Of a stretch of 64,000 nucleotides of DNA, positions 14,711 to 64,000 are shown piece after piece. The position numbers and the translations under genes were made by a program. Source of the DNA: Naegleria gruberi (lineage: Eukaryota). A model generated the notes under the pieces. The model was not told where the DNA came from and did no database searches. It worked only from the letters and a program-made list of their open reading frames with translations. The stretch lies in NCBI GenBank assembly GCA_000004985.1, contig GG738857.1; one strand, 5' to 3'. Positions within the stretch are counted from its first letter, which is position 1. The number at the start of each line of letters is the position of its first letter.

Positions 14711-17699
14711 ATGGCCGATCACAAAATGGTCTGCAAATTGGGTTTGTGTTTTGAGATGCGAGATTTAAAATTATTTATTAAATGTGTGATGATTACAGGC
14801 TGATAGGAAATATGTGTTGGAAGCTGTTAAACAAAATGGGTTGGCACTTGAAAATGCCGATGAATCTGGAAGCTGTTAAACAAAATGGATTGGCAATTGA
14901 ATTTGCTGATTCATCATTAAAAAAGATAGAGAAATTGTATTGGAATCTGTTAAACAAAATGGATATGCATTTAAATATGCCGATGAGTTATTGAAAAAAG
15001 ATGAAGAGTTTATATTGGAAGTTGTTAAACAAGATGGATTGGCAATTAAACATGCTGATTCATCATTACAAAAAGATAGAGAAATTGTATTGGAAGCTGT
15101 TAAACAAAATGTATATGCACTTAAATATGCAGATTCATCATTGAAAAAAGATAGAGAAATTATATTGAAATCTGTTAAGAAAAATGGATTGACACTTGAA
15201 TTTACTGATTCATCATTGAAGAAAGATAGAGAAATTGTATCGGAAGCTGTTAAACAACATGGATTGGCAATTGAGTTTGCTGATTCATCATTTAAAAAAG
15301 ATAGAGAAATTGTATTGGAAGCTGTTAAGCAAAATGTGTATGCAATTGAATTTGCTGATTCATCATTGAAGAAAGATAGACAATTTGTACTAGAAGCTGT
15401 TACGAAAAATGGATTAGTACTTGAATATGCTGATTCATCATTGAAGAAAGATAGAGAATTTGTATTAGAATCTGTTACGAAAAATGGATATGCATTTCAA
15501 TATGCTGTTTCATCATTTAAAAAAGATAGAGAAATTGTATTGGAAGCTGTTAAACAAAATGGAGCAGCGCTTAAATATGCTGATGAATCAGTTAAGGGAG
15601 ACAGAGAAATTGTATTGGAAGCTGTTAAACAAAATGGATTGGCATTTAAATATATTTATTCATCATTGAAAAAAAATAGAGAAATTATATTGGAAGCTGT
15701 TAAACAAAATGGATCAGCACTTAAACATGCTGATTCATTTTTGAAGAAAGATAGAGAAATTGTATCGGAAGCTGTTAAACAAAATGGATTGGCACTTCAG
15801 TTTGCTGATTCATCATTTAAAAAAGATAGAGAAATTGTATTGGAATCTGTTAAAAAAAATGGATCAGCACTTGAATATGCTGATTCATCATTTAAAAAAG
15901 ATAGAGAATTTATTTATTTGCTATTTAAATTGAACAAAGAAAATGCAAGAAACTTCTCACCATCTATATCCAAAACCATTGAAGAATGCTTAAATATTCA
16001 GAGAAAGCTGTCAAGCAATATAACTGAACAATACTCCAAAATATTTATGGATGAAAAGGATTTATATTATGCTATTGAATTAACAAGTCTCTTTAATCCA
16101 ACACCAAAAGGTACAATATTCAATTTCAATTCTATCTATACACCAATATTTATTGAAAAATTGATTATTTTTCAAATATTGAAACAAATGAACCATTCAG
16201 AATTGTCTAATGATATTATTGCTCTTATTGATTTACAAAGTACCAAAGCTAACTATTATTTATATTGTTTCAGATTGGACAAATTTCTTGAAGATAATCC
16301 CTGTCAATCAACAAGAATGAAAGATTTGAAGAATATTGTGGAACAAGTTGCAACAAACTTTGAAACGTCATTTTATACAAAACAGGAAATTAATGAAATT
16401 ATGATTTTTGCCAACAAGTGGTTTGAAAATGAGCAAACATTTGAAAATTACAAACAAATAATTTGTAAATATAATGAGCTGAGAGGAGATTTATCAAAAG
16501 TATTCAAATCTCTTAATTATTTCTATAATTATTTCAAAAATGATTATGATTTCATTTCAGTATTAGGATATGGAGGTGAAGGTGTTGCATTCAAAGTATT
16601 TCATAAAAGTAGTAAATCATTAAGGGCTTTAAAATTGAAATATGACCCAGAGGAATCTGAAGAATCAACAAAAGAAACCATTAATTTATTGAAAAGAACA
16701 GACATTGAAGGAAAGATCAAATGTTTTGATTGTGAAATTATTCAAAATCATTTATATTCAGTGATGGAACTTGGAGAGGAATCATTATCAAATTACATTT
16801 CAAGAAATAATGAAAGTGAAATTTATAGAAATGGATTCATTATTAAGGAAAAACTAATTGAAATTCTTGATATATTTATCAAAGTATTGAACTCAGTTCA
16901 ATCAATTCATGATCACAATATTTTACACAGAGATTTAGATCCTCAAAATATTGTCAAAGTTCAAGATTTATACAAAATTATTGATTTTGAAACATCAAGA
17001 GTGATCAAGACAGGTAATTCAATTACAATTGCTCGTGGAAAGTTTGCATACATGTCTCCTGAAGTTTCACATGATAATTATTCTGATGATTTATTGAAAA
17101 GTGGTAATGATGAAAAGCTTGCTCACAATGTTGGACAAATTACCATTTCATGTGATATATTTTCATTGGGATGTATTTTGTTGAAATTATTAACCAATTG
17201 TCCTTTGCAACTATGTTCAACATTTCTGAATGATTCAGATGTCTCTAAATATAATGATAATTACTTGTATTTTAGTGGACATGGAAAATATTTCTATACA
17301 GTTGTGACAACAACAGAGGGAGAAATGAAATTACATTATGCAATTGAAAAACTAATCAATGAAACAATTAATCCAGATTTAGGAGTGAATAACATATTGA
17401 TTAGAAGCATTATTAGCATGATTCAAAGAGATTCATCAAAAAGATTGGATTGTTATTCTCACAAGTTAACAATTGAGAATATTTTGAAATTTTTGAAAGG
17501 AGAAATCAAAGATATCACTTTCAATATTGAAAAACAAGTTGGAGAATTGAAGAAAATATCACCATTAAGAAGTTACTCTCAACTTGTAGAGGAAAATACC
17601 AAACTATTAGAAAGAATTAAATTATTGGAAGAGAACTCTTTATTGGAACGAATTAAAATGTTGGAAGAGGAAATAATAAATCTAAAAACAGACCAATAA
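14711..17699 (+). CDS. DUF4116-repeat / atypical protein kinase / coiled-coil family, copy A. The 5' repeat region is disrupted; the main intact ORF is 14940..17699
   Basis: It shares the family 5' structure: ATG at 14711, GTTTGT donor at 14742 and a TTACAG acceptor before GCTGATAGG at 14799. The segment 14860-14935 is out of frame because of a 26-nt deletion plus a 1-nt loss in an A-run, giving three in-frame stops. The ORF from 14940 on has about 13 25-aa repeats (LEAVKQNGxALxYADSSLKKDREIV), a helical linker, a kinase domain (LGYGGEGVAFKV, HRDLDPQN, DFETSR, YMSPEV) and a C-terminal coiled coil (LLERIKMLEEEIINLKTDQ). Confidence 0.6.
14799..15903 (+). repeat. Tandem 75-bp coding repeat array (25-aa DUF4116-like repeats) of family copy A
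   Basis: Visible 75-nt periodicity (gctgttaaacaaaatgg...gattcatcattgaagaaagatagagaaattgtattggaa). Alternative sense frames stay open across the array, which produces spurious ORFs such as 15484..15669. Confidence 0.85.
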
Positions 17700-18392: not shown

Positions 18393-19865
18393 ATGCCAAG
18401 TTTCATCAAGAGATTATCGTTACGAAATTCATTTCAACAACGTCAATCCATTCACCAAGATCGTAGAAGAACGATCCGAGCCATTCCCTTCTTTCAAGAT
18501 TTTAAAATTGCCATCATTGGAGATGAATGTGTTGGAAAATCGAATATTGCAATGAGATGTGCTGGAAAGGAGACGTTTGTGCCAGAACATGAACCAACGA
18601 TTGAAGATGAGTATAATTGTAAGGTACAGTTTATGTTTAGGTTGCCAGCACCTTTGGTGGAAGAAATAGTTTCGAATGGTGGTGAAGGAGATTCGAATGA
18701 ATTAATGAGAAGTAATCCCAAAGGTGATATTTATGGATATAAACAATTGGCACATGATTTGGAATTAATACCAATGGAATTGAGAAATTATATGAAATTG
18801 GATAATACTTTGCTATCAATTATTCAACAAAAAAGAGAAAAGGAAGAGGAAATGAAAAAAGCACTTGAGGAGAAACAAAAGAAAATGTTTAGTTTATTCA
18901 AGAAGAAATCAACAACGAGTGATTCTCCACAAAAATCTTCTCATGAGCATGCTGGAAATAATCAATCAGGAGAGGATGGAGATTTTGGAAGAGTAATCAC
19001 TGAGGAAGAGGACATTGATGATTATGTGGATGAATTACTTTCGGATGTGGTTTATAATTTCGAGCAGGACATTATTTGTAGAGTGACCATTGTGGATACG
19101 AGTGGGAGATCGGAAGTGAGAAAGGAAGCAACTGATTTGTCTTCAGTGGATGGATACATGTTGGTTTTTGATATGAATAATAAGGCATCATTTGCCAAGA
19201 TTCAGAATTATATTGATGAGTGTAAATTTGCCTACTATGAAAATCCTGCAAGGAAACATTCGGATGCAGCTGCTTCACACAGTTCGAGTAGTGCTCGATT
19301 GTCCTCTGCAAGTAATAATAGTTCAGCAACAATGAATTCAACCTCCTCAGCAAGTGCTGCCTCTTCCAATGTAAATAGTTCTAAACCATCGACAATTGAT
19401 AATCCTCCAATGGTCCTTATAATGAGTAAATGCGATCAGAAACCATCAGCCCTCAAGACCATTAATGCAGAGTATGGCTATGCTCTTGGAGATACTCATC
19501 ATTTTCCATTCTTTGTCACTAGTGCATGTGAAAATTTGAATATCCAAGAAGCATTAGAAGGTCTCCTGAGTGAAATTATCAAGAAGAACATTGAGGAAGG
19601 AGTTTACGAAACTCAAAACAAATCAATGCCAACACCACTACCATCTGCTGATGAAACTTTAAGCAAGACCAATAGTAGAAACTTTAAATTTGAGAATCAA
19701 AATATCAGTATCAGTAGCAATGCCAGTGATTACACTCCTGAATTGTTAACGTTCAGTGTTGGAAATGGAGTTGTTCCACAGAGTCCTCCTGAGAAGAAGA
19801 TTGTTCGTCAGAGTGTCTCTGCAACTCTGAGAAAGTATGTCGTTCAACAATTTAAAAAGAAATAA
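18393..19865 (+). CDS. Ras-superfamily small GTPase-like protein with large insertions and non-canonical catalytic motifs
   Basis: G1 is IAIIGDECVGKS, switch I is PTIEDEY, G3 reads DTSGRSE (Arg where the catalytic Gln sits) and G4 reads SKCD instead of NKxD. There is a roughly 130-aa acidic/K-rich insert and an S/N/A-rich low-complexity segment. The ATG at 18393 is preceded by caaa. Confidence 0.6.
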   Translation: MPSFIKRLSLRNSFQQRQSIHQDRRRTIRAIPFFQDFKIAIIGDECVGKSNIAMRCAGKETFVPEHEPTIEDEYNCKVQFMFRLPAPLVEEIVSNGGEGDSNELMRSNPKGDIYGYKQLAHDLELIPMELRNYMKLDNTLLSIIQQKREKEEEMKKALEEKQKKMFSLFKKKSTTSDSPQKSSHEHAGNNQSGEDGDFGRVITEEEDIDDYVDELLSDVVYNFEQDIICRVTIVDTSGRSEVRKEATDLSSVDGYMLVFDMNNKASFAKIQNYIDECKFAYYENPARKHSDAAASHSSSSARLSSASNNSSATMNSTSSASAASSNVNSSKPSTIDNPPMVLIMSKCDQKPSALKTINAEYGYALGDTHHFPFFVTSACENLNIQEALEGLLSEIIKKNIEEGVYETQNKSMPTPLPSADETLSKTNSRNFKFENQNISISSNASDYTPELLTFSVGNGVVPQSPPEKKIVRQSVSATLRKYVVQQFKKK

Positions 19866-27871: not shown

Positions 27872-30574
27872 AATGTCTGAAGATTGGGTTTGTGTTTTGT
27901 GATGCGATTTTATTAATGGGGGTGTGATGACTATCACAAATAATAGGCCGATAGGACATATGTGTTAGAAGCTGTTAAACAACGTGGAAATGCACTTAAA
28001 TATGCCGATGAAGCATTTAAAAAAGATAGAGAAATTGTATTGGAGGCTGTTAAAAAAAACGGATTAATAATTCAATATGCTGATTCATCATTGAAAAGAG
28101 ATAGAGAAATTGTATTGGAAGCTGTTAAACAGCGTGGATATGCAATTCAATATGCTGATTCATTGTTAAAGAAAGATAGAGAAATTGTATTGGAATGTGT
28201 TAAACAAGATGGATTGGCACTTGAATATGTTGATTTATCATTACAAAAAGATAGAGAAATTGTGTTGGCAGCTGTTAAACAAAATGGATTGGCACTTCGA
28301 TATGCTGATTCATCATTGAAAAAAGATAGAGAAATTGCATTGGAATCTGTTAAACAACGTGGATATGCAATTCAATATGCTGATTCGTTGTTAAAGAAAG
28401 ATAGAGAAATTGTATTGGAAGCAGTTAAACAAGATGGATTGGCACTGCAATATGCTTATTTTCAAAATGACAGAGAAATTGTATTGGAAGCTGTTAAGCA
28501 AAATGGATCAGCAGTTGAATACGCTGATTCATCATTGAAAAAAGATAGAGAATTTATATTGGAATCTGTTAAACAACATGGATTGACTCTTAAATATGCT
28601 GATTCATTATTGAAGAAAGATAGAGAAGTTGTTTCGGAAGCTGTTAAACAAGATATATTGGCACTTAAATATGTTGATTCATCATTTAAAAGAGATAGAG
28701 AATTTATATTGGAAGCAGTTAAACAACATTCATTGGCACTTGAATATGCTGATTCATCTTTACAAAGAGATATCGTTTTTACTTATTCACTTTTTAAATT
28801 GAACAAAGAAAATGCAAGAAAGTTCTCACCCTCTATAACCAAAACCATTGAAGAATCCATTAATCTTCAGAGAAAGCTGTCAAGCAATATAATTGAACAA
28901 TACTCCAAAATATTTATGGATGAAAAGGATTTATATTATGCTATTGAATTAACAAGTCTCTTTAATCCAACACCAAAAGGTACAATATTCAATTTCAATT
29001 CTATCTATACACCAATATTTATTGAAAAATTGATTATTTTTCAAATATTGAAACAAATGAACCATTCAGAATTGTCTAATGATATTATTGCTCTTATTGA
29101 TTTACAAAGTACCAAAGCTAACTATTATTTATATTGTTTCAGATTGGACAAATTTCTTGAAGATAATCCCTGTCAATCAACAAGAATGAAAGATTTGAAG
29201 AATATTGTGGAACAAGTTGCAACAAACTTTGAAACGTCATTTTATACAAAACAGGAAATTAATGAAATTATGATTTTTGCCAACAAGTGGTTTGAAAATG
29301 AGTAAACATTTGAAAATTACAAACAAATAATTTGTAAATATAACGAGCTGAGAGGAGATTTATCAAAAGTATTCAAATCTCTCAATTATTTCTATAATTA
29401 TTTCAAAAATGATTATGATTTCATTTCAGTATTAGGATATGGAGGTGAAGGTGTTGCATTCAAAGTATTTCATAAAAGTAGTAAATCATTAAGGGCATTA
29501 AAATTAAAATATGACCCAGAGGAATCTGAAGAATCAACAAAAGAAACCATTAATTTATTGAACAGAACAGACATTGAAGGAAAGATCAAATGTTTTGATT
29601 GTGAAATTATTCAAAATCATTTATATTCAGTGATGGAACTTGGAGAGGAATCATTATCAAATTACATTTCAAGAAATAATGAAAGTGAAATTTATAGAAA
29701 TGGATTCATTAAGAAGGAAAAGTTGATTGAAATTCTTGAAATATTTATCAAAGTATTGAACTCAGTTCAATCAATTCATGATCACAATATTTTACACAGA
29801 GATTTAGATCCTCAAAATATTGTCAAAGTTCAAGATTTATACAAAATTATTGATTTTGAAACATCAAGAGTTATCAAGACAGGTAATTCAATTACAATAG
29901 CTCGTGGAAAGTTTGCATACATGTCTCCTGAAGTTTCACATGATAATTATTCTGATGATTTATTGAAAAGTGGTGATGATGAAAAACTTGCTCACAATGT
30001 TGGACAAATTACCATTTCATGTGATATATTTTCATTGGGATGTATTTTATTGAAATTATTAACAAATTGTCCATTACAACTATGTTCAACATTTGTTAAT
30101 GATTCAGATGTCTCAAAATATAATGACAAGTATCCATATTTTAGTGGTCATGGAAAATATTTCTATACAGTTGTAACAACAACAGAGGGAGAAATGAAAT
30201 TACATTATGCAATTGAAAAACTAATCAATGAAACGATTAATCCAGATTTAGGAGTGAATAACATATTAATTAGAAGCATTATTAGCATGATTCAAAGAGA
30301 TTCATCAAAAAGATTGGATTGTTATTCTCACAAGTTAACAATTGAGAATATTTTGAAATTTTTGAAAGGTGAAATCAAAGATATCACTTTGAATATTGAA
30401 AAACAAGTTGGAGAATTGAAGAAAATCTCACCATTAAGAAGTTACTCTCAACTTGCTGAAGAAAATAACAAAATTACAGATGAAAAAACCAAACTTTCGG
30501 ATGAAAATAGCAACCTGTTAGAAAGAATTAAAATGTTGGAAGAGGAAATAAGAAAACTCACACAAACCATATGA
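27872..30574 (+). pseudogene. DUF4116-repeat / atypical kinase / coiled-coil family, copy B, interrupted by an in-frame TAA at 29303..29305. Exon 1 is 27872..27886 and the intron is 27887..27945
   Basis: The micro-exon ATGTCTGAAGATTGG (MSEDW) is followed by a GTTTGT...AATAG intron and an exon 2 in frame from GCCGATAGG. ORFs 27962..29305 and 29558..30574 lie in one frame. They are separated only by a TAA where every other copy has CAA (ENE*TFENYKQ against ENEQTFENYKQ). There is also an in-frame deletion in one repeat (YAYFQNDREIV). Confidence 0.7.
27946..28790 (+). repeat. Tandem 75-bp coding repeat array of family copy B (about 11 repeats)
   Basis: Periodic LEAVKQxGxALxYADSSLKKDREIV units at nucleotide level. 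Confidence 0.85.
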
Positions 30575-38482: not shown

Positions 38483-40006
38483 ATGTGTGAACTTGCATTA
38501 CCAGAAGAGATTTTTCATCATCACATATTTCCATTCATCAATGGTGTTGATCTTCTCGCATCGTGTCGGTTAGTGTGCAGAGAGTGGAATTCAATTATTG
38601 GAGAAATTCCGCTCCGACTGATAACTGTCAATGAAACTTTGAAGGAAAAGCAGAAACAATTCTTTATTAATAATTGTGCAAAGGGAAAATTTAATCAAGT
38701 GGTGCAATTGAAAGGAAATTTTGGAAATATTTATAAAGTTTTGAATAGTTTGAAATCCTTGACATGTTTGGATTTAATTTTTGAAGGAGAGAAGGAGGAT
38801 GATTTCAAGTATTTGGCAAAATTAACCAAGTTGAAGGAATTTTCAATTAATTATTGTGATAGTGGCGATGTAATTTTGAAATATATTCATAATTTGAGTT
38901 TAACTCGGCTAGAATTGAAATCTACCAAATTGCGTCCACAAGAAGTTAAGATTATTGGAAAAATCACAACTTTAAAGAGTTTGAACCTCCACCACAACAA
39001 TATTGAAGATGAAGGTGTTGAATTTATATCCGATTTGAAATTAGAGAGCTTGGGATTGTGTAGATGTGCACTGACAAGCAAGTCAACATCTTTTCTGTGT
39101 AAAATTACTAGTTTGAAAAAACTTGATTTATCAGAAAATATTATTAACGATGAATGTGGCTTTTATTTGTCCATGTTGACAGATTTGGAAGAGTTGGATT
39201 TGCACGATAATTCCATAGAAGGGAAATGCTTTAAAGAATTCTCAAGTTTGAAAAAGTTGAAAACTTTAAAATTATGTCAGAACAGAATTTCACAAGAAGA
39301 GGCCATGATATATTTATCTCAAACAGTATCACTCAAAAGCTTAAATCTTTCCCAAAATAATATTGGCCAATCAAGTATTCATCTTTCCAATCTAACTAAT
39401 CTCAAAGAACTTGAATTGAATTTGTGTAAAATTACAAAAGGAGGTCTTTCCTTTTTTTCCAATTTAAAAAAGTTGGAGATTTTGAAAATAAGTCAAAATA
39501 GTCTTGGATATGACGATTTTGAAGAACTTTCTCATTTGGTTAGATTGAGAATTCTTTCAATCTTTGGATGTGGATTAGAAAAAAATTCCACCAATTTTAT
39601 TGGAAACATCAAAACACTTAGAAACTTGGAAATGTTTAGTAATAACATATACGATGCTGGCCTTGCTTCCCTTTCGGGTTTAGTAAATCTACAAATACTA
39701 AAATTAGATTCCACTAGAATTACCGATACTGGAATACAACATTTATCACAAATGAAAGAATTAGAAATTCTCAGGTTGAATTCAAATTCACTCGGAAATG
39801 AAACTTTAATCAAGCTGGCTCAATTTGAATTTAAAAAACTTACTGAATTGGAGATTTCCCATGCAAATATTGACAAGGACAGTATTTCAGTAATTTCTCA
39901 AATGAAATCATTGAAAATCATAAGAATGTTTGGAACAGGATATTCAAGAAATGATCTCATAGATTTGAAGAAGGCATGTCCACATCTAATAGTTTCAGTT
40001 CGATAA
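38483..40006 (+). CDS. F-box / leucine-rich-repeat protein (FBXL-like)
   Basis: N-terminal F-box-like motif LPEEIFHHHIFPFINGVDLLASCRLVCREWNSII, followed by at least 14 LRRs (LxxLxLxxNxI...). Clean ATG and stop. Confidence 0.75.
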   Translation: MCELALPEEIFHHHIFPFINGVDLLASCRLVCREWNSIIGEIPLRLITVNETLKEKQKQFFINNCAKGKFNQVVQLKGNFGNIYKVLNSLKSLTCLDLIFEGEKEDDFKYLAKLTKLKEFSINYCDSGDVILKYIHNLSLTRLELKSTKLRPQEVKIIGKITTLKSLNLHHNNIEDEGVEFISDLKLESLGLCRCALTSKSTSFLCKITSLKKLDLSENIINDECGFYLSMLTDLEELDLHDNSIEGKCFKEFSSLKKLKTLKLCQNRISQEEAMIYLSQTVSLKSLNLSQNNIGQSSIHLSNLTNLKELELNLCKITKGGLSFFSNLKKLEILKISQNSLGYDDFEELSHLVRLRILSIFGCGLEKNSTNFIGNIKTLRNLEMFSNNIYDAGLASLSGLVNLQILKLDSTRITDTGIQHLSQMKELEILRLNSNSLGNETLIKLAQFEFKKLTELEISHANIDKDSISVISQMKSLKIIRMFGTGYSRNDLIDLKKACPHLIVSVR

Positions 40007-44235: not shown

Positions 44236-45747
44236 ATGTATAAACTAACTCATCTTCCTCCTGAAATTATCATTAAAATCATCGAGTATCATGTAGAAGG
44301 CTTGGGTATTTCCCTCCTCGGAAACAAACTTGTTATTCTCGAATCAATTCAATCAGCCTTGTTGTGGGAAAGAATTTGCAAAGCCTTTTCGAATGAGTCA
44401 CTTATACGAAACTATTTGACTGACAACTTTTGGAAAAAGATTATTCTTGAAAACTTTGTGAGGGAAACTATCGGATTGGACAGCCAAACTCTGAAATCAA
44501 CACCTAGGAGGAAAATTATTGAACATATCAAATCAAAACAAGATGTAAAAACACTCTTGGTCAATTATCGAGAATTCTTAAAATTAATTACTGACTTTCC
44601 ACACTCAATTTCAATCTATCAACGATACTTCACTAGAAAGGATGTATTGGAAACATTTCAAATTGTAGTATTGGGACATCATCAAGCAGGAAAATCACAA
44701 CTCGTCAATTCATTTCTTCAAATTGAAACAAATCAATTGACCTCTCACAATAATGAAGTTTACACTCGTGTTGAGAAACATCCAATGACTCCTAATCAAA
44801 TGTTTCGAATGCAAGTAATGGACACTCACTTTCTTCATACCTGTTCTCAGCATATTTCACAAGCTCATGCCATTCTACTGGTTTGTTCACATTGTCAATT
44901 GGAGGAAACCTTGTTCGAAACTGAGCAAATTCTCAAACGATGCATTGAAATTAAACAATCATCTTCCTTTCCACTCATTGTAGCCTTGAACAAATCCGAC
45001 GAATCCAGAAAGAGTCTCAAGAAGAGACGTTCCAACAATGATTACAACAATAACTCGAGTCCTTCAACACCTAAATCACCAACCTCTAATAACTGCTGTC
45101 ATGGCTCATACCTACTTGCAGATCCATTCCTATCTTCACCCCCACCAATGTCCTCTTCATCCTCTCCATCATCGACGATATTCAGCAGTCCTCCTCCAAT
45201 ATGTTGTTTCTCTGCTCCAATCATTACAGGAAACAGCCTTCTACTGAGCAATAGTTATAATAACAATAGCAACTGTACTCATCACTTGATGAATACGAGT
45301 TCTGCGACCTTATCTACCATAGCCACAACAATAACAACAACTACAGCCATGAGTACTTCCAATATTTCTTCATCATACAATGGAACACCAACAAGCCTTC
45401 TATTGGGTTCTTCTTCTTCCTTCATTCAAAACAACGTTGGAGGAGGTAATTCTTCAACATGTTGTTCTCATCATCAGCATCATGTAAGAACAGAGGAGGA
45501 TGAATACAAAATGATGGAAAATCTATTAATTCGCTACGGAATGATCAATTATCGAATCATTAGAACGAGTGGTAAGGAGAGGTCGAATGTTGTGGAGGCT
45601 TTTGATGAGTGTGTGTTGCGAGCTAGCTTGAATCATGCCAAGTTGATGGTCGATGTGATTGATGCGGCTGTTGTTCATCACGTTGAAGCAACAGAAAAAT
45701 TCTTTAAAGCAGGCATGCTACAGAGAAAACGATGTGATTTATTGTGA
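44236..45747 (+). CDS. F-box-like N-terminus fused to a Ras-superfamily GTPase-like domain, with an S/T/N-rich low-complexity region
   Basis: LPPEIIIKIIEY is F-box-like. G1 is GHHQAGKS and G4 is LNKSDE. The G3 region is MDTHF. Followed by poly-S/T/N tracts. Confidence 0.6.
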   Translation: MYKLTHLPPEIIIKIIEYHVEGLGISLLGNKLVILESIQSALLWERICKAFSNESLIRNYLTDNFWKKIILENFVRETIGLDSQTLKSTPRRKIIEHIKSKQDVKTLLVNYREFLKLITDFPHSISIYQRYFTRKDVLETFQIVVLGHHQAGKSQLVNSFLQIETNQLTSHNNEVYTRVEKHPMTPNQMFRMQVMDTHFLHTCSQHISQAHAILLVCSHCQLEETLFETEQILKRCIEIKQSSSFPLIVALNKSDESRKSLKKRRSNNDYNNNSSPSTPKSPTSNNCCHGSYLLADPFLSSPPPMSSSSSPSSTIFSSPPPICCFSAPIITGNSLLLSNSYNNNSNCTHHLMNTSSATLSTIATTITTTTAMSTSNISSSYNGTPTSLLLGSSSSFIQNNVGGGNSSTCCSHHQHHVRTEEDEYKMMENLLIRYGMINYRIIRTSGKERSNVVEAFDECVLRASLNHAKLMVDVIDAAVVHHVEATEKFFKAGMLQRKRCDLL

Positions 45748-46000: not shown

Positions 46001-48516
46001 TTATTGTTTGAGTTTTCTATTTTCCTCTTCCAATATTTTAATTCTTTCTAACAGGTTGCTATTTTCCATGGTGTTTTCATCCAAAAGTTTATATAGGTTG
46101 GTGTTTTCCTCTGCGAGTTTGGTATTTTCATCCGAAAGTTTATCAACTTCCTCTGCAAGTTGAGAGTAACTTCTTAATGGTGATATTTTCTTCAATTCTC
46201 CAACTTGTTTTTCAATATTCAAAGTGATATCTTTGATTTCACCTTTCAAGTATTTCAAAATATTCTCAATGGTTAACTTGTGAGAATAACAATTCAATCT
46301 TTTTGATGAATCTCTTTGAATCATGCTAATAATGCTTCTAATCAATATATTATTCACTCCTAAATCTGGATTAATTGATTGATTGATTAGTTTTTCAATT
46401 GCATAATGTAATTTCATTTCTCCCTCTGTTGTTGTCACAACTGTATAGAAATATTTTCCATGTCCACTTAAATATGGATACTTGTCATTATATTTAGAGA
46501 CATCTGGATCATTAACAAATGTTGAACATAGTTGCAGAGGACAATTTGCTAATAATTTCAATAAAATACATCCCAATGAAAATATATCACATGAAATGGT
46601 AATTTGTCCAACATTGTGAGCAAGCTTTTCATCATTATCACTTTTCAATAAATCATCAGAATAATTATCATGTGAAACTTCAGGAGACATGTAGGCAAAC
46701 TTTCCACGAGCAATTGTAATTGAATTACCTGTCTTGATAACTCTTGATGTTTCAAAATCAATTATCTTGTATAAATCTTGAACTTTGACAATATTTTGAG
46801 GATCTAAATCTCTGTGTAAAATATTGTGATCATGAATTGATTGAACTGAGTTCAATACTTTGATAAATATATCAAGAATTTCAATCAACTTTTCCTTAAT
46901 AATGAATCCATTTCTATAAATTCCATCTTGATTATTTCTTGAAATATAATTTGATAATGATTCCTCTCCAAGTTCCATCACTGTATACAAATGATTTTGA
47001 ATAATGTCACAATCAAAACATTTGATCTTTCCTTCAATGTCTGTTCTTTTCAATAAATTAATGGTTTCTTTTGTTGATTCTTCAGATTCCTCTGGGTCAT
47101 ATTTTAATTTTAATGCCCTTAATGATTTACTACTTTTGTGAAATACTTTGAATGCAACACCTTCACCTCCATATCCTAATACTGAAATGAAATCATAATT
47201 ATATTTGAAATAATTATAGAAATAATTGAGAGCTTTGAATACTTTTGATAAATCTCCTCTCAGCTCATTATATTTACAAATTATTTGTTTGTAATTTACA
47301 AATGTTTTCTCATTTTCAAACCACTTGTTGGCAAAATTCATAATTTCATTAATTTCCTGTTTTGAATAAAATGATGTTTCGAAATTTGTTGCAACTTGTT
47401 CCACAATATTCTTCAAATCTTTCATTCTTGTTGATTGACAGGGATTATCTTCAATAAATTTGTCCAATCTGAAACAAAATAAATAATAGTTAGCTCTTTC
47501 TGAAAGAACATTTTCAGTGGATAATTCTGAATGGTTCATTTGTTTCAATATTTGAAAAAAAATCAACTTTTCAACAAATATTGGTGTGTAGATAGGATTA
47601 AAATTGAATATTGTACTTTTTGGTGTTGGATTAAAGAGACTTGTTAATTCAATACCATAATATAAATCCTTTTCATCCATAAATATTTTGGAGTATTGTT
47701 CAATTATATTGCTTGACAGCTTTGTCTGAAGATTAATGGATTCTTCAATGGTTTTGGTTATAGAGGGTGAGAACCTTCTTGCATTTTCCTTGTTCAATTT
47801 AATTAATAAATAAATAAATATACTATCTTTTTTAAATGATTCATCAGCATGCTTAAGTGCCAATCCAGCTTGTTTAACAGATTCCAATATAAATTCTCTA
47901 TCTTTTTTCAATGATGAATCAGCATATTCAAGTGCATATCCATCTTGTTTGACAGACTCCAATACAATTTCTCTATCTTTTTTAAATGATGAATCAGCAA
48001 ATTCAAGTGCCAATCCATCTTGTTTGACAGATTCCAATACAATTTCTCTATCTTTTTTAATATTGAATCAGCAAATTCAAGTGCCAATCCATGTTGTTTA
48101 ACAGATTCCAATATAAATTCTCTATCCTTTTTCAATGATGAATCAGCATATTTGAGTGCTGGTCCATAGCGTATAACAGCTTCCAATATAATTTCTCTAT
48201 CTTTTTCCAATGATGAATCAACATATAAAAGTGTCAATCCATTTTGTTTAATAGCTTCCAACACAATTTCTCTATCTTTTTTAAATGCTGGATCAGCATA
48301 TTGAAGTGCCAACCCATTTTGTTTAACAGCTTCCAATACAATTTCTCTATCTTTTTTCAATGATGAATCAGCATTTTCAAGTGTTGATCCATTTTGTTTA
48401 ACAGCTTTCAACACATATTTCCTATCGGCCTATTGTTGCAATCATGAATCATCACACCAATAAAAATAATTATTTTCTCCACAGCAACAAATACCAACCC
48501 ACTCGTTTTTGTTCAT
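46001..48516 (-). pseudogene. DUF4116-repeat / atypical kinase / coiled-coil family, copy C, with a frameshift near 48058. Exon 1 is complement(48499..48516) and the intron is 48430..48498
   Basis: The micro-exon ATGAACAAAAACGAGTGG (MNKNEW) is followed by a GTTGGT...CAACAATAG intron. ORFs 47908..48414 and 46001..48037 overlap in different frames. A 1-nt loss in tcttttttaatattgaatca (consensus tcttttttaaatgatgaatca) at about 48058 explains the shift. The repeat array is shorter (about 8 units). The C-terminal tail has extra LxEEN(T/S)xL mini-repeats. Confidence 0.65.
47830..48429 (-). repeat. Tandem 75-bp coding repeat array of family copy C (about 8 units)
   Basis: Same unit. Includes the frameshifted unit near 48058. 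Confidence 0.8.
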
Positions 48517-49598
48517 TTTTTTAAAGGTATTCTAGACCATCACATTCCGAATCAACTTGATGATTTTTACACCCAAAAAGAACAGTTTCAACTATTACAG
48601 ATGGGTTTTTTTGTTATTGGACGCCATCACATGATCTGTTAAGATTTGCATCCTCTTCTTGTTGATCCATTATGAATTGCTCCTCATCATCTGATTCCGA
48701 GGATCAGAACCAAGCTCTCTCAATCAAATCATCCACCATTAAATCTTGCTCATCTACTTCTGAATTCAACTTCTTAGTCACTCCTTGTTGTGTTTGATAA
48801 GGAATTTATTGCCTAATTTTTGATATATATTTTCAAATGTATGGAGTGTTCCTTTGTGTTGGTGTTTTCTCTATTTTTTTAGGCTTTGAAATAAGGCGCT
48901 AAGATCCACTCATTGATACTGATGAACCATGATCTCAATGAGGTCGAGGAAGATGGATCGAAGAAGAAGCCTATTGATGAATCATCACATAATTGGCATC
49001 ATGATGAAAATAGCAGTCTGGTTGACAGCTGTGTATGTGTAAATAACATCATTATTACTATTCATCTAGCGTTTACTCAATTCATATTCATTCTTATCAT
49101 GTGATTACATAGCTTATTAACCATTACGAACCGTGTGGTCCCATTCTTGCTCTGAATATAAAATTAAAAACCGATCAAAGTTGGTGGCAAGAATGAAAAA
49201 TTTACAAAATCGATCACAAATAAAATAAAATTCAAGTTTTGGTCACCAAAACGACCAAAACGCAGACCAAACAAGTTATTCAAGTTATTGTTGCTTTGAT
49301 TTTTAAATAATATATTTGATAAAATAAAAAGAATAAAAACGGAGCGCGGGAATAAAATTGTAGATGAAGCTTAACATATTGTAAATTTATTGTAAAGTAA
49401 TCTTTTTATGGTTGCATACTTTAATAACAAGCATCATGAATTGCTAGGCAACTCAAGAGTCACTTTAGGGTTGTAATATTTGGTATTGTTGCTGTGTTAC
49501 TATTATCTTTTTTAGAATGCATCCTTTTTTGTCATTTCCATTTCAGTCTTTGTGAAGAAACCTTTCGAATAGAGAAATTGCAAACAAAGAAACAAAAA

Positions 49599-50726
49599 AT
49601 GGGTGGAAAGCTCTCTTCGAATCACAATCATCATCAACACTCCAACAACACTCCACTTCTGCAACAAACTAAACATTCGAATAACAATGACAATCATCAG
49701 AGAATAGTTTTACTGGGAAATACTTCAAGTGGAAAGTCAACTATTTGTGAAATGATTCAATATCAGAAACAACATCAAGCAGATAAATCATGCAATACTT
49801 ACAACCTATTCTATAAGGTAGATTCGAATACAATTTCAAAAACTATTATTGAACAGATATTGTTTGCATCAAAGGATATATCTATTGAGGCAATTATTCG
49901 AGAATATACAAATGATTGCAATAATTTTGATAATTCTACACTTTTTGCATTGTGGAATGATCAGAAATTTAGAAATATTTATCAGAGCTGTCAAGATTCT
50001 CTCAATTTATTCGAAAATGTTGACATTTTTGTAAGGAAACTTAAGAATCATGAAAGTTTCATTCCAGATATTTACATTAAGGGAAATTCTTCTGGAATTA
50101 CAGAGTATGACATTAATTTTGATGACAAGAAAGTGACATTTGTGACTGCAGGTGGAAAAACAAGTGAAAGAAAAAAGTGGAATTTCTGCTTGCAAGGAAA
50201 TGTTTCCGTTTTGGTTTATGTTGTTTCGTTGGCAGAATTCAATCAATCAGGTTATGGAGATGAGAAGGTGAATAGAATGGACGAAAGTTTGAAACTTTAC
50301 AAGGAATTGATGACTCGTGTTTCGAATAGTGGTAATAATACGAGAGTTGTCTTACTGTTTACCAAACCAGATATAATGATGAGGAAACTGAGGAGTTACA
50401 TTGAATTTGGAAGATTATTCGAAACTGAAACACTTACTGATCTTTCACGAATTGTAAACGATTATCACGAAAGGGATGTTCTCAATACAATTATATCGAG
50501 TTTTTTAACCGAAACAAATAATATTTATGGGAAAATACCAGAATATCACATTATTCAGTCGATATCAGAATTGGACATTTCACAACTCGCCAAACTAATG
50601 TTGAATAATGAGAAAAATAGACATTATATTTCTAATTGCTTGTTTGAGAAAATATCGCTTGTGAGATGTTATCAATTAGTGATGGCTCAACAATTGACCG
50701 ATTTAACAATTAAGTGTCAATTATAA
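49599..50726 (+). CDS. Heterotrimeric G-protein alpha-subunit-like protein, highly divergent
   Basis: MGGKLSS N-terminus with the myristoylation Gly2. G1 is LLGNTSSGKST (compare LLGAGESGKST). VTAGGKTSERKKW sits where DVGGQRSERKKW belongs. LLFTKPD sits where NKxD belongs. The real start is the ATG at 49599; the ORF-track start at 49494 is a TTG. Confidence 0.8.
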   Translation: MGGKLSSNHNHHQHSNNTPLLQQTKHSNNNDNHQRIVLLGNTSSGKSTICEMIQYQKQHQADKSCNTYNLFYKVDSNTISKTIIEQILFASKDISIEAIIREYTNDCNNFDNSTLFALWNDQKFRNIYQSCQDSLNLFENVDIFVRKLKNHESFIPDIYIKGNSSGITEYDINFDDKKVTFVTAGGKTSERKKWNFCLQGNVSVLVYVVSLAEFNQSGYGDEKVNRMDESLKLYKELMTRVSNSGNNTRVVLLFTKPDIMMRKLRSYIEFGRLFETETLTDLSRIVNDYHERDVLNTIISSFLTETNNIYGKIPEYHIIQSISELDISQLAKLMLNNEKNRHYISNCLFEKISLVRCYQLVMAQQLTDLTIKCQL

Positions 50727-50957: not shown

Positions 50958-53900
50958 TTAATTTTGTTTGAGTTTTCTATTTTCCTCTTCTAATACTTTA
51001 ATTCTTTCTAATAGGTTGGTATTTTCCTCTACAAGTTGAGAGTAGCTCCTTAATGGTGAGATTTTCTTCAATTCTCCAACTTGTTTTTCAATATTGAAAG
51101 TGATATCTTTGATTTCACCTTTCAAAAATTTCAAAATATTCTTAATTGTTAACTTGTGAGAATAACAATTCAATCTTTTTGATGAATCTCTTTGAATCAT
51201 GCTAATAATGCTTCTAATCAATATGTTATTCACTCCTAAATCTGCATTAATCGTTTCATTGATTAGTTTTTCAATTGCATAATGTAATTTCATTTCTCCC
51301 TCTGTTGTTGTCACAACTGTATAGAAATATTTTCCATGTCCACTAAAATATGGATACTTGTCATTATATTTAGAGACATCTGGATCATTAACAAATCTTT
51401 CACACAATTGCAAAGGACAATTGGTTAATAATTTCAACAAAATGCATCCCAATGAAAATATATCACATGAAATGGTAATTTGTCCAACATTGTGAGCAAG
51501 TTTTTCATTGTCATCACTTTTCAATAAATCATCAGAATAATTATCATGTGAAACTTCAGGAGACATGTATGCAAACTTTCCACGAGCAATTGTAATTGAA
51601 TTACCTGTCTTGATAACTCTTGATGTTTCAAAATCAATAATTTTGTAATGATCTTGAACTTTGACAATATTTTGAGGATCTAAATCTCTGTGTAAAATAT
51701 TGTGATCATGAATTGATTGAACAGAGTTCAATACTTTGATAAATATTTCAAGAATTTCAATCAACTTTTCCTTATTAATGAATCCATTTCTATAAATTCC
51801 ATCTTGATTATTTCTTGAAATATAATTTGATAATGATTCCTCTCCAAGTTCCATCACTGAATATAAATGATTTTGAATAATTTCACAATCAAAACATTTG
51901 ATCTTTCCTTCAATGTCTGTTCTGTTCAATAAATTAATGGTTTCTTTTGTTGATTCTTCAGATTCCTCTGGATTATATTTTAATTTTAATGCCCTTAATG
52001 ATTTACTACTTTTGTGAAATACTTTGAATGCAACACCTTCACCTCCATATCCTAATACTGAAATGAAATCATAATTATATTTGAAATAATTATAGAAATA
52101 ATTGAGAGCTTTGAATACTTTTGATAAATCTCCTCTCAGCTCATTATATTTACAAATTATTTGTTTGTAATTATCAAATGTTTTCTCATTTTCAAACCAC
52201 TTGTTGGCAAAAATCATAATTTCATTAATTTCCTGTTTTGTATAAAATGACGTTTCAAAGTTTGTTGCAACTTGTTCCACAATATTCTTCAAATCTTTCA
52301 TTCTTGTTGATTGAGAAGGATTATCTTCAAGAAATTTATCCAATCTGAAACAAAATAAATAATAGTTAGCTTTGGTGCTTTGTAAATCAATTAGAGCAAT
52401 AATATCATTAGACAATTCTGAATGGTTCATTCGTTTCAATATTTGAAAAATAATCAATTTTTCAACAAATATTGGTGTGTAGATAGGATTAAAATTGAAT
52501 ATTGTACTTTTTGGTGTTGGATTAAAGAGACTTGTTAATTCAATAGCATAATATAAATCTTTTTCATCCATAAATATTTTGGAGTATTGTTCAATTATAT
52601 TGCTTGACAGCTTTTTCTGAATATTTAAGCATTCTTCAATGGTTTTGGATATAGAAGGTGAGAACTTTCTTGCATTTTCTTTGTTCAATTTAAATAGCAA
52701 ATAAATAAATTCTCTATCTTTTTTAAATGATGAATCAGCGTATTCAAGTGCTCGTACATTTTGTTTAACAGCTTCCAATACAATTTCTCTATCTTTTTTC
52801 AATAATGAATCAGCATATTTAAGTGCATATCCATCTTGTTTGACAGTTTCCAATATAAATTCTCTATCTTTTTTAAATGATGAATCAGCGTATTCAAGTG
52901 CTCGTACATTTTGTTTAACAGCTTCCAATACAATTTCTCTATCTTTTTTCAATAATGAATCAGCATATTCAAGTGTCAATCCATTTTGTTTAACAGTTTC
53001 CAATATAATTTCTCTATCTTTTTTAAATGATGAATCAGCATATTCAAGTGCCAATCCATTTTGTTTAACAGCTTCCAATATAATTTCTCTATCTTTTTTC
53101 AATAATGAATCAGCATATTCAAGTGCCAATCCATTTTGTTTGACAGCTTCCAATATAAATTCTCTATCTTTTTTAAATGATGAATCAGCATATTGAAGTG
53201 CTCGTACATTTTGTTTAACAGCTTCCAATATAATTTCTCTATCTTTTTTCAATGATGAATCAGCATATTGAAGTGCTCGTCCATTTTGTTTAACAGCTTC
53301 CAATATAAATTCTCTATCTTTTAGAAATGATGAATCAGCATATTTAAGTGCATACCCATCTTGTTTAACAGCTTCCAATATAAATTCTCTATCTTTTTTA
53401 AATGATGAATCAGCATATTTAAGTGCATATTCATTTTGTTTAACAGATTCCAATATAATTTCTCTATCTTTTTTAAATGATGAATCAGCATATTTAAGTG
53501 CCAATCCATTTTGTTTAACAGCTTCCAATATAATTTCTCTATCTTTTTTCAATATTGAATCAGCGTATTCAAGTGCCCACCCATTTTGTTTAACAGCTTC
53601 CAATATAAATTCTCTATCTTTTTTAAATGATGAATCAGCATATTGAAGTGCCAATCCATTTTGTTTAACAGCTTCCAATATAATTTCTCTATCTTTTTTA
53701 AATGATGAATCAGCATATTCAAGTGCCAATCCATGTTGTTTAACAGCTTCCAATACAATTTCTCTATCTTTTTTAAATGATGAATCAGCGTATTCAAGTG
53801 CATATCCATTTTGTTTAACAGCTTCCAATATAATTTCTCTATCTTTTTTCAATAATGAATCAGCGTATTCAAGTGCTGGTCCATAGCGTTTAACAGCTTC

Positions 53901-54533
53901 CAATACAATTTCTCTATCTTTTTTAAATGATGAATCAGCATATTGAAGTGCCCACCCATTTTGTTTAACAGCTTCCAATACAATTTCTCTATCCTTTTTA
54001 AATGATGAATCAGCATCTTCAAGTGCCGATCCATTTTGTTTAACAGCTTCCAATATAATTTCTCTATCTTTTTTAAATGATGAATCAGCAAATTCAAGTG
54101 CCAATCCATTTTGTTTAACAGCTTCCAATATAATTTCTCTATCTTTTTTAAATGATGAATCAGCGTATTGAAGTGCCAATCCATAGTGTTTAACAGCTTC
54201 CAATATAATTTCTCTATCTTTTTTCAATAATGAATCAGCGTATTCAAGTGCTGGTCCATAGCGTTTAACAGCTTCCAATACAATTTCTCTATCTTTTTTA
54301 AATGATGAATCAGCATATTGAAGTGCCCACCCATTTTGTTTAACAGCTTCCAATACAATTTCTCTATCCTTTTTAAATGATGAATCAGCATCTTCAAGTG
54401 CCGATCCATCTTGTTTAACAGCTTCCAACACATATTTCCTATCGGCCTATTGTTGTGATCATGATCATCACATTTTATATAATAATTATTTCACCACACA
54501 GCAACAAATACCAACCCACTCGTTTATGTTCAT
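50958..54533 (-). CDS. DUF4116-repeat / atypical kinase / coiled-coil family, copy D, the only apparently intact member. Exons complement(join(50958..54446,54516..54533))
   Basis: The micro-exon ATGAACATAAACGAGTGG (MNINEW) is followed by a 69-nt GTTGGT...AATAG intron (54447..54515). The exon-2 ORF encodes about 23 25-aa repeats, a linker, a kinase domain with the same atypical motifs as the other copies, and a coiled coil (LLERIKVLEEENRKLKQN). It ends in TAA followed by the 3' flank ttgtttgagttttctattttcc shared with the other copies. Confidence 0.8.
52715..54446 (-). repeat. Tandem 75-bp coding repeat array of family copy D (about 23 units, highly homogenised)
   Basis: Near-identical 75-nt units. 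Both alternative sense frames and one antisense frame are stop-free, which gives spurious ORFs 53321..54433 and 52840..53196. Confidence 0.9.
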
Positions 54534-61465: not shown

Positions 61466-64000
61466 TTATTGTTTGAGTTTTCTTATTTCTTCTTCCAACA
61501 TTTTAATTCTTTCTAATAGGTTGCTATTTTCCATTGAAAGGTTGGTGTTTTCCTCTGCAAGTTTGTCAACATCCTCTAATAGGTTGGTATTTTCATCCGA
61601 AAGTTTATCAACTTCCTCTGCCAGTTGAGAGTAACTTCTTAATGGTGAGATTTTCTTCAATTCTGCAATTTCCTTTTCAATATTCAAAGTGATATCTTTG
61701 ATCTCACCTTTCAAGTATTTCAAAATATTCTCAATTGTTAACTTGTGAGAATAACAATCCAATCTTTTTGATGAATCTCTTTGAATCATGCTAATAATGC
61801 TTCTAATTAATATGTTATTCACTCCTAAATCTGGATTAATTGATTCATTGATTAGTTTTTCAATTGCATAATGTAATTTCATTTCTCCCTCTGTTGTTGT
61901 TATAACTGTATAGAAATATTTTCCATGACCACTAAAATATGGATAATTATCATTATATTTCGAGACATCTGAATCATTAACAAATCTTTCACACAATTGC
62001 AAAGGACAATTGGTCAATAATTTCAATAAAATACATCCCAATGAAAATATATCACACGAAATGGTAATTTGTCCAACATTGTGAGCAAGCTTTTCATTGT
62101 CATCACTTTTCAATAAATCATCAGAATAATTATCATGTGAAACTTCAGGAGACATGTATGCAAACTTTCCACGAGCAATTGTAATTGAATTACCTGTCTT
62201 GATAACTCTTGATGTTTCAAAATCAATAATTTTGTATAGATCTTGAACTTTGACAATATTTTGAGGATCTAAATCTCTGTGTAAAATATTGTGATCATGA
62301 ATTGATTGAACTGAGTTCAATACTTTGATAAATATATCAAGAATTTCAATCAACTTTTCCTTATTAATGAATCCATTTCTATAAATTCCATCTTGATTAT
62401 TTCTATAAATATAATTTGATAATGATTCCTCTCCAAGTTCCATCACTGTATACAAATGATTTTGAATAATTTCACAATCAAAACATTTGATCTTTCCTTC
62501 AATATCTGTTCTTTTCAATAAATTAATGGTTTCTTTTGTTGATTCTTCAGATTCCTCTGGATTATATTTTAATTTTAACGCCCTTAATGATTTACTACTT
62601 TTGTGAAATACTTTGAATGCAACACCTTCACCTCCATATCCTAATACTGAAATAAAATCATAATTATATTTGAAATAATTATAGAAATAATTGAGAGCCT
62701 TGAATACTTTTGATAAATCTCCTCTCAGCTCATTATATTTACACACTATTTGTTTGTAATTATCAAATGTTTTCTCATTTTCAAACCACTTGTTGGCAAA
62801 AATCATNNNNNNNNNNNNNNNNNNNNNNNNNNNNNNNNNNNNNNNNNNNNNNNNNNAGCCATAAATATTTTGGAGTATTTTTCAATTATATTGCTTGACA
62901 GTTTTGTCTGAATATTTAAGCATTCTTCAATGGTTTTGGATATAGAAGGTGAGAACTTTCTTGCATTTTCTTTGTTCAATTTAAATAGCAAATAAATAAA
63001 TTCTCTATCTTTTTTAAATGATGAATCAACATATTTAAGTGCCAATATATCTTGTTTAACAGCTTCCGAAACAACTTCTCTATCTTTTTTAAATGATGAA
63101 TCAGCATATCTAAGTGTTGATCCATGTTGTTTAACAGTTTCCAATATAAATTCTCTATCTTTTTTCAATAATGAATCAGCATATTCAAGTGCTCGTACAT
63201 TTTGTTTAACAGCTTCCAATATAATTTCTCTATCTTTTTTAAATGATGAATCAGCATATTCAAGTGCCAATCCATTTTGTTTAACAGCTTCCAATATAAT
63301 TTCTCTATCGTTTTTAAATGATGAATCAGCATATTCAAGTGCCAACCCATTTTGTTTAACAGCTTCCAATATAAATTCTCTATCTTTTTTAAATGATGAA
63401 TCAGCATATTCAAGTGCCAATCCATTTTGTTTAACAGCTTCCAATATAATTTCTCTATCTTTTTTAAATGATGAATCAGCATATTCAAGTGCTCGTACAT
63501 TTTGTTTAACAGCTTCCAATATAATTTCTCTATCTTTTTTAAATGATAAATCAGCATATTGAAGTGCTCGTCCATGTTGCTTAACAGCTTCCAATATAAA
63601 TTCTCTATCTTTTAGAAATGATGAATCAGCATATTTAAGTGCATACCCATCTTGTTTAACAGCTTCCAATATAAATTCTCTATCTTTTTTAAATGATGAA
63701 TCAGCATATTTAAGTGCATATCCATTTTGTTTAACAGCTTCCAATATAAATTCTCTATCTTTTTTAAATGATGAATCAGCATATTTAAGTGCCAATTCAT
63801 TTTGTTTAACAGCTTCCAATATAATTTCTCTATCTTTTTTAAATGATGAATCAGCATATTCAAGTGCCCATCCATTTTGTTTAACAGCTTCCAATATAAT
63901 TTCTCTATCTTTTTTAAATGATTAATCAGCATATTCAAGTGCCCACCCATTTTGTTTAACAGCTTCCAATACAATTTCTCTATCTTTTTTAAATGATGAA
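61466..64000 (-). CDS. DUF4116-repeat / atypical kinase / coiled-coil family, copy E. It is 5'-partial (runs off the window), is interrupted by an assembly gap, and has an in-frame TAA in the repeat array at about 63921
   Basis: ORF 61466..62806 covers the kinase and coiled coil (tail with extra DKLSDENTNLLE / LAEENTNL mini-repeats). ORF 62803..63894 covers the linker and repeats. The two are separated by 50 N. Upstream, gattaatca stands where the consensus is gattcatca (ADSSF becomes AD*SF). Confidence 0.6.
62807..62856. other. Assembly gap (50 N) inside family copy E
   Basis: Run of n. Compared with copy D, about 480 nt of linker/kinase N-lobe coding sequence is missing here, so the true gap size is unknown. 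Confidence 0.95.
62995..64000 (-). repeat. Tandem 75-bp coding repeat array of family copy E, continuing past the window end
   Basis: Same 75-nt periodic unit as the other copies, with alternative-frame ORFs 63165..63575 and 63612..63974. Confidence 0.85.

Follow-up and report, generated by a model that had tools for sequence, protein, structure and literature searches.

A 64,000-nucleotide stretch of Naegleria gruberi DNA (GenBank assembly GCA_000004985.1, contig GG738857.1), hereafter the window, is AT-rich eukaryotic DNA and carries five tandemly dispersed paralogues, copies A to E, of a protein kinase family in which the catalytic-loop lysine is replaced by aspartate and a threonine of the P+1 loop by lysine. 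Copies A (14940..17699) and B (27962..30574) lie on the plus strand; copies C (46001..48414), D and E (61466..63894) lie on the minus strand. The main exon of copy D occupies 50958..54446, stop codon included (50958-54431 in the list of open reading frames, ORFs), and encodes the DUF4116 array, the middle domain, the kinase domain and the coiled-coil tail; upstream, a GT..AG intron of 69 nucleotides (54447-54515) separates it from a putative first exon of 18 nucleotides (54516..54533) encoding MNINEW, an N-terminus that matches the MNKNEW/MSEDW-ADRxYVL starts of the annotated proteins P0002 and P0005. All five paralogues share one architecture: a DUF4116 repeat array, a middle region, a Pkinase domain and a C-terminal coiled-coil-like tail. 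The array holds from 3 to about 20 units depending on the copy, and Pfam recognized 18 stretches of these tandem repeats (PF13475) in copy D and 12 in copy A. The middle region, of about 220 residues, is helical and conserved among the copies and has no Pfam match, while Pkinase (PF00069) was found in every copy with E values of about 1e-19 to 1e-24, copy D giving 3.9e-24 and 85.9 bits against a curated cut-off of 31.7.

The kinase domain of copy D, as modelled, comprises 348 residues (ORF residues 762-1109; 51105..52148, minus strand, as are all copy D coordinates below) and includes an N-terminal helix and a C-lobe insert. The glycine-rich loop, LGYGGEGVAFKV, lies at 52020..52055, with G33, E37 and G38 invariant in the family, and is followed by the beta3 strand LRALKL (51981-51998), whose lysine, K55 (codon 51984..51986), is invariant both in the family and in Mps1 orthologues. 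Residues E69-T70 of helix alphaC are encoded at 51939..51944; T70 stands in the canonical alphaC-Glu column and the glutamate one residue upstream. The catalytic loop reads HRDLDPQN (51669..51692), where an aspartate (codon 51678-51680) replaces the catalytic-loop lysine, K168 of PKA; DFETSR (51618..51635) carries a glutamate (codon 51627-51629) in place of the DFG glycine; and the P+1 loop reads GKFAYMSPE (51555..51581), ending in SPE (51555-51563) and bearing a lysine (codon 51576-51578) at position APE8, which corresponds to T201 of PKA and T686 of TTK. HRDLDPQN, like DFETSR and GKFAYMSPE, is present in all five copies, with its first letter at 16926, 29795, 46816, 51692 and 62281; besides copy D, it spans 16926-16949 in copy A, 29795-29818 in copy B, 46793-46816 in copy C and 62258-62281 in copy E. 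Copy A has DFETSR at 16983-17000 and GKFAYMSPE at 17037-17063.

By sequence (phmmer), the closest solved relative of copy D is human TTK/Mps1 (E = 1.7e-13), and the alignment sets HRDLDPQN over HSDLKPAN, DFE over DFG and MSPE over MPPE, so that these residues do occupy the catalytic-loop, DFG and APE positions. A preliminary description of this DNA had placed them there and had proposed alignment with canonical kinases; that alignment and the Pfam Pkinase match bear out the assignment, and the motif strings of the G-loop, the beta3 lysine and HRD, which it had reported in every copy, were indeed found in all five. Its statement that the alphaC glutamate region is present was not borne out, since both the phmmer and the MAFFT/hidden Markov model (HMM) alignments put T70 in the Glu column.

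Apart from these replacements, the window copies retain the GxGxxG loop, the beta3 Lys, the HRD Asp, the catalytic-loop Asn, the DFG Asp, the APE Glu and the subdomain XI Arg, all of them invariant or nearly so in the family. The combination usual for Ser/Thr kinases, Lys at HRD+2 with Thr or Ser at APE8, gives way to Asp and Lys in 13 of 13 domains of the clade to which the copies belong, and the DFG glycine is Glu, Asp or Asn within that clade and Asp, Glu or Ser in sister domains. By formal definition, a pseudokinase has lost one or more of three residues (VAIK Lys, HRD Asp, DFG Asp); copies A-E keep all three, and only the paralogue P0008, which reads NFN, falls under the definition. The features of RD kinases are also kept in the family (HRD Arg, Arg or Lys at DFG+5, and an activation-loop S-I-T), and the peptide-binding C-lobe is otherwise canonical, with the APE Glu, the subdomain IX Asp and the subdomain XI Arg in place.

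Structure prediction was performed with AlphaFold2 on the copy D kinase domain, using a 33-sequence alignment that included Mps1 orthologues and sister-clade sequences. The model has a kinase fold with a mean predicted local distance difference test (pLDDT) score of 85.9 and a predicted template modelling score of 0.86; pLDDT reaches about 90 to 99 over the catalytic-loop blocks, and the activation-loop tip (residues 181-188) and the insert after APE (201-219) are of low confidence. A model made from nine family sequences only reached a pLDDT of 58, and less than 50 in its catalytic and activation segments, and was discarded. The best Foldseek matches in the PDB, with E about 1e-15, were CDK2/cyclin complexes, mostly cyclin A-bound and Thr160-phosphorylated, together with Myt1 and TLK2. 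The kinase domain is predicted by this model to be a canonical bilobal eukaryotic protein kinase fold.

The agreement of the five copies has to be read against their age. Their motif DNA is base-for-base identical except for one synonymous GCA/GCC change in copy C, within GKFAYMSPE, and synonymous divergence (dS) among the window copies is about 0.13, with a range of 0.11-0.18; with such recent duplication, the identity of the motifs reflects descent and is not independent evidence. The preliminary description had argued that the same substitutions in all copies exclude random decay. That argument, drawn from identical young copies, is weak; its conclusion stands, because Asp at HRD+2 is invariant in nine other N. 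gruberi paralogues, down to 40% identity, and because the ratio of non-synonymous to synonymous substitution (dN/dS) is low. The dN/dS comparison that it had suggested was performed by the Nei-Gojobori method over 297 aligned codons and gave 0.09-0.23 in all ten pairs of window copies; in the interval between HRDLDPQN and GKFAYMSPE, one variable codon is non-synonymous and six are synonymous. Other N. gruberi paralogues, at 69-40% identity and on other scaffolds (P0004, P0006-P0011 and P0024), extend the comparison: HRD+2 is Asp and APE8 is Lys in each of the 13 clade domains examined, and G33, G38, K55, D155, D157, N160, K191 and E198 are invariant in paralogues at 93-48% kinase-domain identity. 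DFG+2 is more variable, being Glu in close members of the clade, Asp in distant ones and Asn in P0008, and P0007 reads HGD at the HRD position. Sequence comparison thus indicates that the kinase domain is under purifying selection and not in random decay, and the distant paralogues and dN/dS together uphold the two readings that the preliminary description had offered, a non-canonical active site or a pseudokinase scaffold, conserved in either case.

Copies A and D are intact, D with its probable first exon and intron. The last 330 residues of copy A recur exactly within the annotated N. gruberi protein P0001, those of copy B within P0005 and those of copy C within P0002, and the three proteins are encoded on one 573-kb scaffold. 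The reading frame of copy B is broken by a stop codon at 29303-29305 (WFENE*TFENYK), downstream of the middle domain and upstream of the kinase domain, at a site where the other copies have Lys or Gln; the A-B pair has the lowest dN/dS of all (0.09), from which the stop is either very recent or a sequencing error. The P0005 gene model splices over this region at the cost of about 140 residues, among them the start of the kinase domain. In copy C the frame shifts within the DUF4116 array, near 47908-48037, which gene model P0002 spans by an intron, and copy E is split by a 50-N assembly gap at 62807-62856. The last 330 residues of copies D and E differ from P0001, P0002, P0003 and P0005, and one homologue search with copy D gave a best match 94% identical and no exact copy D protein among its matches; judged from these comparisons, D and E may be unannotated genes.

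The second replacement, at APE8, had been overlooked, and it alters the mechanistic reading of the first. This position, eight residues ahead of the end of the activation segment, is nearly always Thr or Ser in non-tyrosine kinases and hydrogen-bonds the HRD Asp and the HRDxK Lys in substrate-bound structures (bioRxiv 10.64898/2026.02.19.706771), which makes HRD+2 and APE8 direct neighbours. Within the clade APE8 is an invariant Lys, although the motif around it varies (GKFAYMSPE, GKYSYMSPE, RKVPYMPPE, GKYTYMAPE). Naegleria members outside the clade, namely P0025 and P0026 of N. lovaniensis, P0028 of N. gruberi and the environmental P0027 and P0031, share the C-lobe insert and DFD, DFE or DLD, yet have the ordinary HRD+2 Lys and APE8 Thr. 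In a neighbour-joining tree, the Asp/Lys clade falls within these Lys/Thr sisters, and the Mps1 orthologues (Lys/DFG/Thr) form the outgroup. Taken together, the alignments and the tree indicate that Lys-to-Asp and Thr-to-Lys are a single coupled swap at contacting positions, made on the stem of a clade comprising 14 N. gruberi genes. Since the sisters have DF[D/E] with the ordinary Lys/Thr pair and enclose the clade in the tree, a two-step history follows, in which the DFG change came first and the coupled swap second.

The association between the two positions was also looked for elsewhere, by re-reading APE8 in 260 kinase domains from the search matches, counting back from the aligned APE Glu. 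Outside the clade, where Lys is present at HRD+2, none of 231 domains has Lys or Arg at APE8 (207 Thr, 16 Ser, 3 Ala, 3 Asn, 1 Asp and 1 His); where that Lys is absent, APE8 is basic in 3 of 16 (Fisher p = 2.3e-4, without phylogenetic correction). Four domains that combined Lys at HRD+2 with a basic APE8 in the raw HMM alignment proved, on reading the sequences, to be loop misalignments of ordinary GT motifs. The three basic cases are independent kinase domains: one domain of P0074 from the mite Medioppia subpectinata (HRDLNPRD with VGRPGYMAPE), one domain of the environmental tandem kinase P0035 (HRDLTPDN with LGKHHYIAPE) and the environmental, bacterial-type P0124 (HRDVAPDN with IIKAGYSPVE). 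The other domain of P0074, in the same protein, has the ordinary Lys/Thr pair (HRDLKPDN with VGTSQYMA), which hints that the swap recurs outside Naegleria. Such exclusivity, as read from the alignment, fits a basic APE8 side chain and the catalytic-loop Lys competing for one space.

The remaining deviations are older or less unusual. Among the oddities named in the preliminary description, the change of the catalytic-loop Lys to Asp stands; SPE, however, is inherited and not novel, since most Mps1 orthologues have YMSPE (GTLNYMSPE), and acidic replacement of the DFG Gly is known in the active kinases MNK1/2 and in POMK. MNK1/2 have DFD, with Asp for the DFG Gly, a motif biased to an autoinhibited DFD-out state (PMC3326643; PMC1821047), and an acidic residue at the DFG Gly also occurs in the activation-segment motif of plant AGC kinases (PMC3499706). 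In POMK, the second Asp of DLD ion-pairs with the ATP-positioning Lys instead of the alphaC Glu (PMC13519141). The Naegleria alignments indicate that DF[D/E] is older than the swap and family-wide, N. lovaniensis included, and that it coincides with loss of the canonical alphaC Glu: Glu fills this column in 121 aligned domains from elsewhere and in none of the 19 from the Naegleria family, where the residue is Thr, Ile, Leu, Arg, Lys or Gln and a Glu stands at -1 or -2 (phmmer and MAFFT/HMM alignments). By analogy with POMK, transfer of the beta3 Lys partner to the DFG+2 residue is plausible.

An exhaustive profile search of 1.84 billion representative proteins returned 15 matches below 1e-30. 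All named and all full-length family members among them are from Naegleria; the other matches below this threshold were unnamed environmental or sequencing-run proteins (ENA, JGI, Logan) and fragments, besides an Mps1 orthologue and two multi-kinase proteins, one from an oomycete and one of very large size. On this sampling, the family has so far been seen only in Naegleria. Mps1 proteins ranked next behind the family members, one of these matches being named 'mps1' by its source, and sequence similarity points to Mps1/TTK as the closest canonical kinase family. We treat the Naegleria family as probably Mps1-derived or related and not as a member or orthologue of Mps1, because its motifs and flanking domains differ and it forms its own clade outside the Mps1 orthologues in the tree. 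Two relatives have tandem domains. P0008, encoded on another N. gruberi scaffold, joins a family-type domain with the Asp/Lys pair, NFN for DFG and GYEGEG as G-loop to a second, canonical kinase domain (HRDLKPQN with GT), a pseudokinase-like and kinase tandem that resembles the JAKs. P0025 has two family-type domains, the first degenerate (YRD, DFG lost) and the second reading HRDIKTSN with DFE and GT, so in the sister species DFE occurs together with an ordinary Lys/Thr pair. Within the searchable literature, whose coverage is incomplete, we found no description of this family or of a relocation of lysine from the catalytic loop to the P+1 loop, and searches on the Naegleria kinome and on DUF4116 function returned nothing specific.

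Taking these observations together, we favour, at about an even chance, the reading that the family is an active, Mps1-derived kinase with a relocated lysine, its active site rewired rather than decayed. We give somewhat less weight to the mechanism in its full form, a second kind of with-no-lysine solution in which the APE8 Lys, kept in place by the Asp, would stand in for PKA K168 and the acidic residue at DFG+2 for the alphaC Glu. Unrelated kinases may sporadically have made this move as well, the candidates being an eIF2alpha-kinase-like domain of a mite, a NEK-like tandem kinase from the environment and a bacterial serine/threonine kinase. The DFG Gly changed to Asp or Glu family-wide, with the canonical alphaC column losing its Glu; then, once, at the base of the N. 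gruberi clade, HRD+2 passed from Lys to Asp and APE8 from Thr to Lys. In the reading we favour, Lys191 at APE8 would form a salt bridge with Asp157, preserving the tie between P+1 loop and catalytic loop with reversed polarity, and its ammonium group would be placed where the catalytic-loop Lys contacts the gamma-phosphate, so that a positive charge remains at the gamma-phosphate/acceptor site. The carboxylate at DFG+2 (Glu174) may take over pairing with the beta3 Lys55, as in POMK. The domain would probably still transfer phosphate from ATP in the presence of Mg. Phosphorylation of the activation loop would probably regulate it, given the conserved S-I-T, HRD Arg and DFG+5 Arg/Lys, as would dimerisation, which the coiled coil would promote together with trans-autophosphorylation.

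Several points weigh against an active enzyme with a relocated lysine. The swap is one evolutionary event in the family, so its presence in all 13 domains counts as one observation, and the association outside the family rests on three cases, a small sample uncorrected for phylogeny. The alphaC alignment falls in a variable region. The HRD+2 Lys, the DFG Gly and the register of the alphaC Glu deviate together, and as far as the sequence indicates, net negative charge beside the gamma-phosphate could abolish catalysis. Finally, P0008, which carries a second, canonical kinase domain, keeps the Asp/Lys pair despite having lost the DFG Asp and a G-loop Gly, which shows that the pair can persist without catalysis.

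We consider a conserved pseudokinase a serious possibility, even if not a probable one. Here the fold, and perhaps nucleotide binding, would be kept as a scaffold or allosteric switch, and Asp-Lys would be a structural salt bridge replacing the hydrogen bonds of Thr with Lys and Asp. An Asp at the gamma-phosphate-contacting position, the lost DFG Gly and the absent canonical alphaC Glu are all in keeping with it, as is P0008 with its JAK-like fusion, and purifying selection is equally expected for a functional pseudokinase. However, the window copies fall outside the formal definition given above (PMC13519141): its three residues, the metal-binding Asn, and G33 and G38, out of three glycines in the G-loop, show little or no variation across more than 50% sequence divergence; and a dead kinase would have little reason to conserve the RD apparatus of HRD Arg, DFG+5 Arg/Lys and S-I-T.

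An active enzyme with altered chemistry or substrate is unlikely, in our estimate. It could have tyrosine or dual specificity, act on something other than protein, differ in the metal it needs, or bind a third metal ion through the two extra carboxylates. APE8 and HRD+2 set Ser/Thr kinases apart from Tyr kinases and are in contact with the hydroxyl of the acceptor (bioRxiv 10.64898/2026.02.19.706771), the tyrosine-phosphorylating Wee1 is likewise charged at both positions, the DLD kinase POMK has a glycan as its substrate (PMC13519141), and the closest relative, Mps1/TTK, is annotated as dual-specificity in PDB entries; but the sequence points to no specific alternative substrate, and the rest of the peptide-binding C-lobe is canonical. 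Neutral decay, by which these would be dying pseudogenes whose shared substitutions reflect recent duplication, is very improbable: the youth of the copies, their identical motif DNA, the premature stop in copy B and the frameshift in copy C would agree with it, but we rejected it for the family as a whole on the low dN/dS of all ten pairs and the persistence of the same residues in paralogues on other scaffolds at 40-69% identity, with copies A and D intact and D having a plausible start exon and intron, though copy B by itself might be such a case, given a genuine stop and an unexpressed locus.

The rest of the window provides some context for these genes. The DUF4116 array of copy D (52797-54446) consists of at least 18 near-identical units of about 33 residues each, unit number being very different between copies, and the long ORFs that it generates in other frames and on the opposite strand, at 52840-53196 (plus strand), 53549-53809 and 53849-54184 (both minus strand), are repeat artefacts and not genes. 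Signalling genes are interspersed among the kinase copies at 49494-50726, 18393-19865, 44236-45747 and 38483-40006, all on the plus strand; they encode a G-alpha subunit, between copies C and D (Pfam E = 2e-45), two Ras/Roc-like GTPases and an F-box/leucine-rich repeat protein. At 2052-4952 (minus strand), a receptor-type kinase with NHL repeats, EGF-like modules and a transmembrane segment has a fully canonical kinase domain (HRDLKPAN, DFG, GT..YLSPE) and serves as an internal control for ordinary Naegleria kinase motifs; an NHL-repeat ORF (5005-7044, minus strand) adjoins it.

Three residues, the VAIK Lys, the HRD Asp and the DFG Asp, are the usual basis for predicting that a kinase is active. 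The Naegleria family passes this test, yet it has neither the catalytic-loop Lys nor the DFG Gly nor a Glu in the canonical alphaC column, with a plausible compensating residue beside each. Should it be active, the catalytic-loop Lys would be shown to be relocatable, as WNK showed for the beta3 Lys, and a sequence rule (no Lys at HRD+2, with Lys or Arg at APE8) would be available for re-examining kinases assumed to be impaired; should it be inactive, it would be a pseudokinase family that the standard definition misses. The family is lineage-specific, so general impact depends on the mechanism and not on the organism; the reading is drawn from its sequences and could be instructive for the prediction of kinase activity.

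Comparison with known systems places the family closest to Mps1/TTK, with which it shares the hinge VME.GE..L, LK(L/I)IDF, YMSPE, an insert after APE and SD(I/V)(F/W)SLGCIL. Mps1 differs in having HxDLKPAN, DFG, GT and the canonical alphaC Glu, and the Naegleria family, unlike Mps1, has DUF4116 repeats, a middle domain, a coiled coil and a C-lobe insert of about 50 residues. MNK1/2 and the plant AGCVIII kinases are known kinases with Asp for the DFG Gly, but they belong to unrelated subfamilies. Both retain the HRD+2 Lys, the APE8 Thr and the alphaC Glu. Bud32 itself is not known to have a Lys at HRD+2. Kae1 supplies a Lys to Bud32 (PMC13519141); in the Bud32/PRPK-Kae1 pair, however, it is a partner protein that provides this Lys in trans, and the reaction within KEOPS is hydrolysis of ATP, not phosphorylation of a protein. 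WNK and POMK offer a parallel in that a catalytic Lys is absent from its canonical site and supplied by a neighbouring element (PMC13519141), and POMK also has an acidic residue (DLD) at the DFG-Gly position; in the Naegleria family the relocation would be of a different lysine, for in WNK and POMK the beta3 (VAIK) Lys moved to beta2, whereas here the beta3 Lys is intact and the catalytic-loop Lys has apparently moved to the P+1 loop. Like these two, Wee1 has no homology to the Naegleria family beyond the kinase superfamily. It resembles the family in its charged HRD+2/APE8 pair (HMDIKPSN with EEGDSRFLANE, that is, Lys with an APE8 Asp), and Myt1 is among the best structural matches; the polarity is Lys/Asp against Asp/Lys in Naegleria, and Wee1 retains the catalytic-loop Lys. 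Wee1 shows that an active kinase can carry a charged pair at HRD+2 and APE8.

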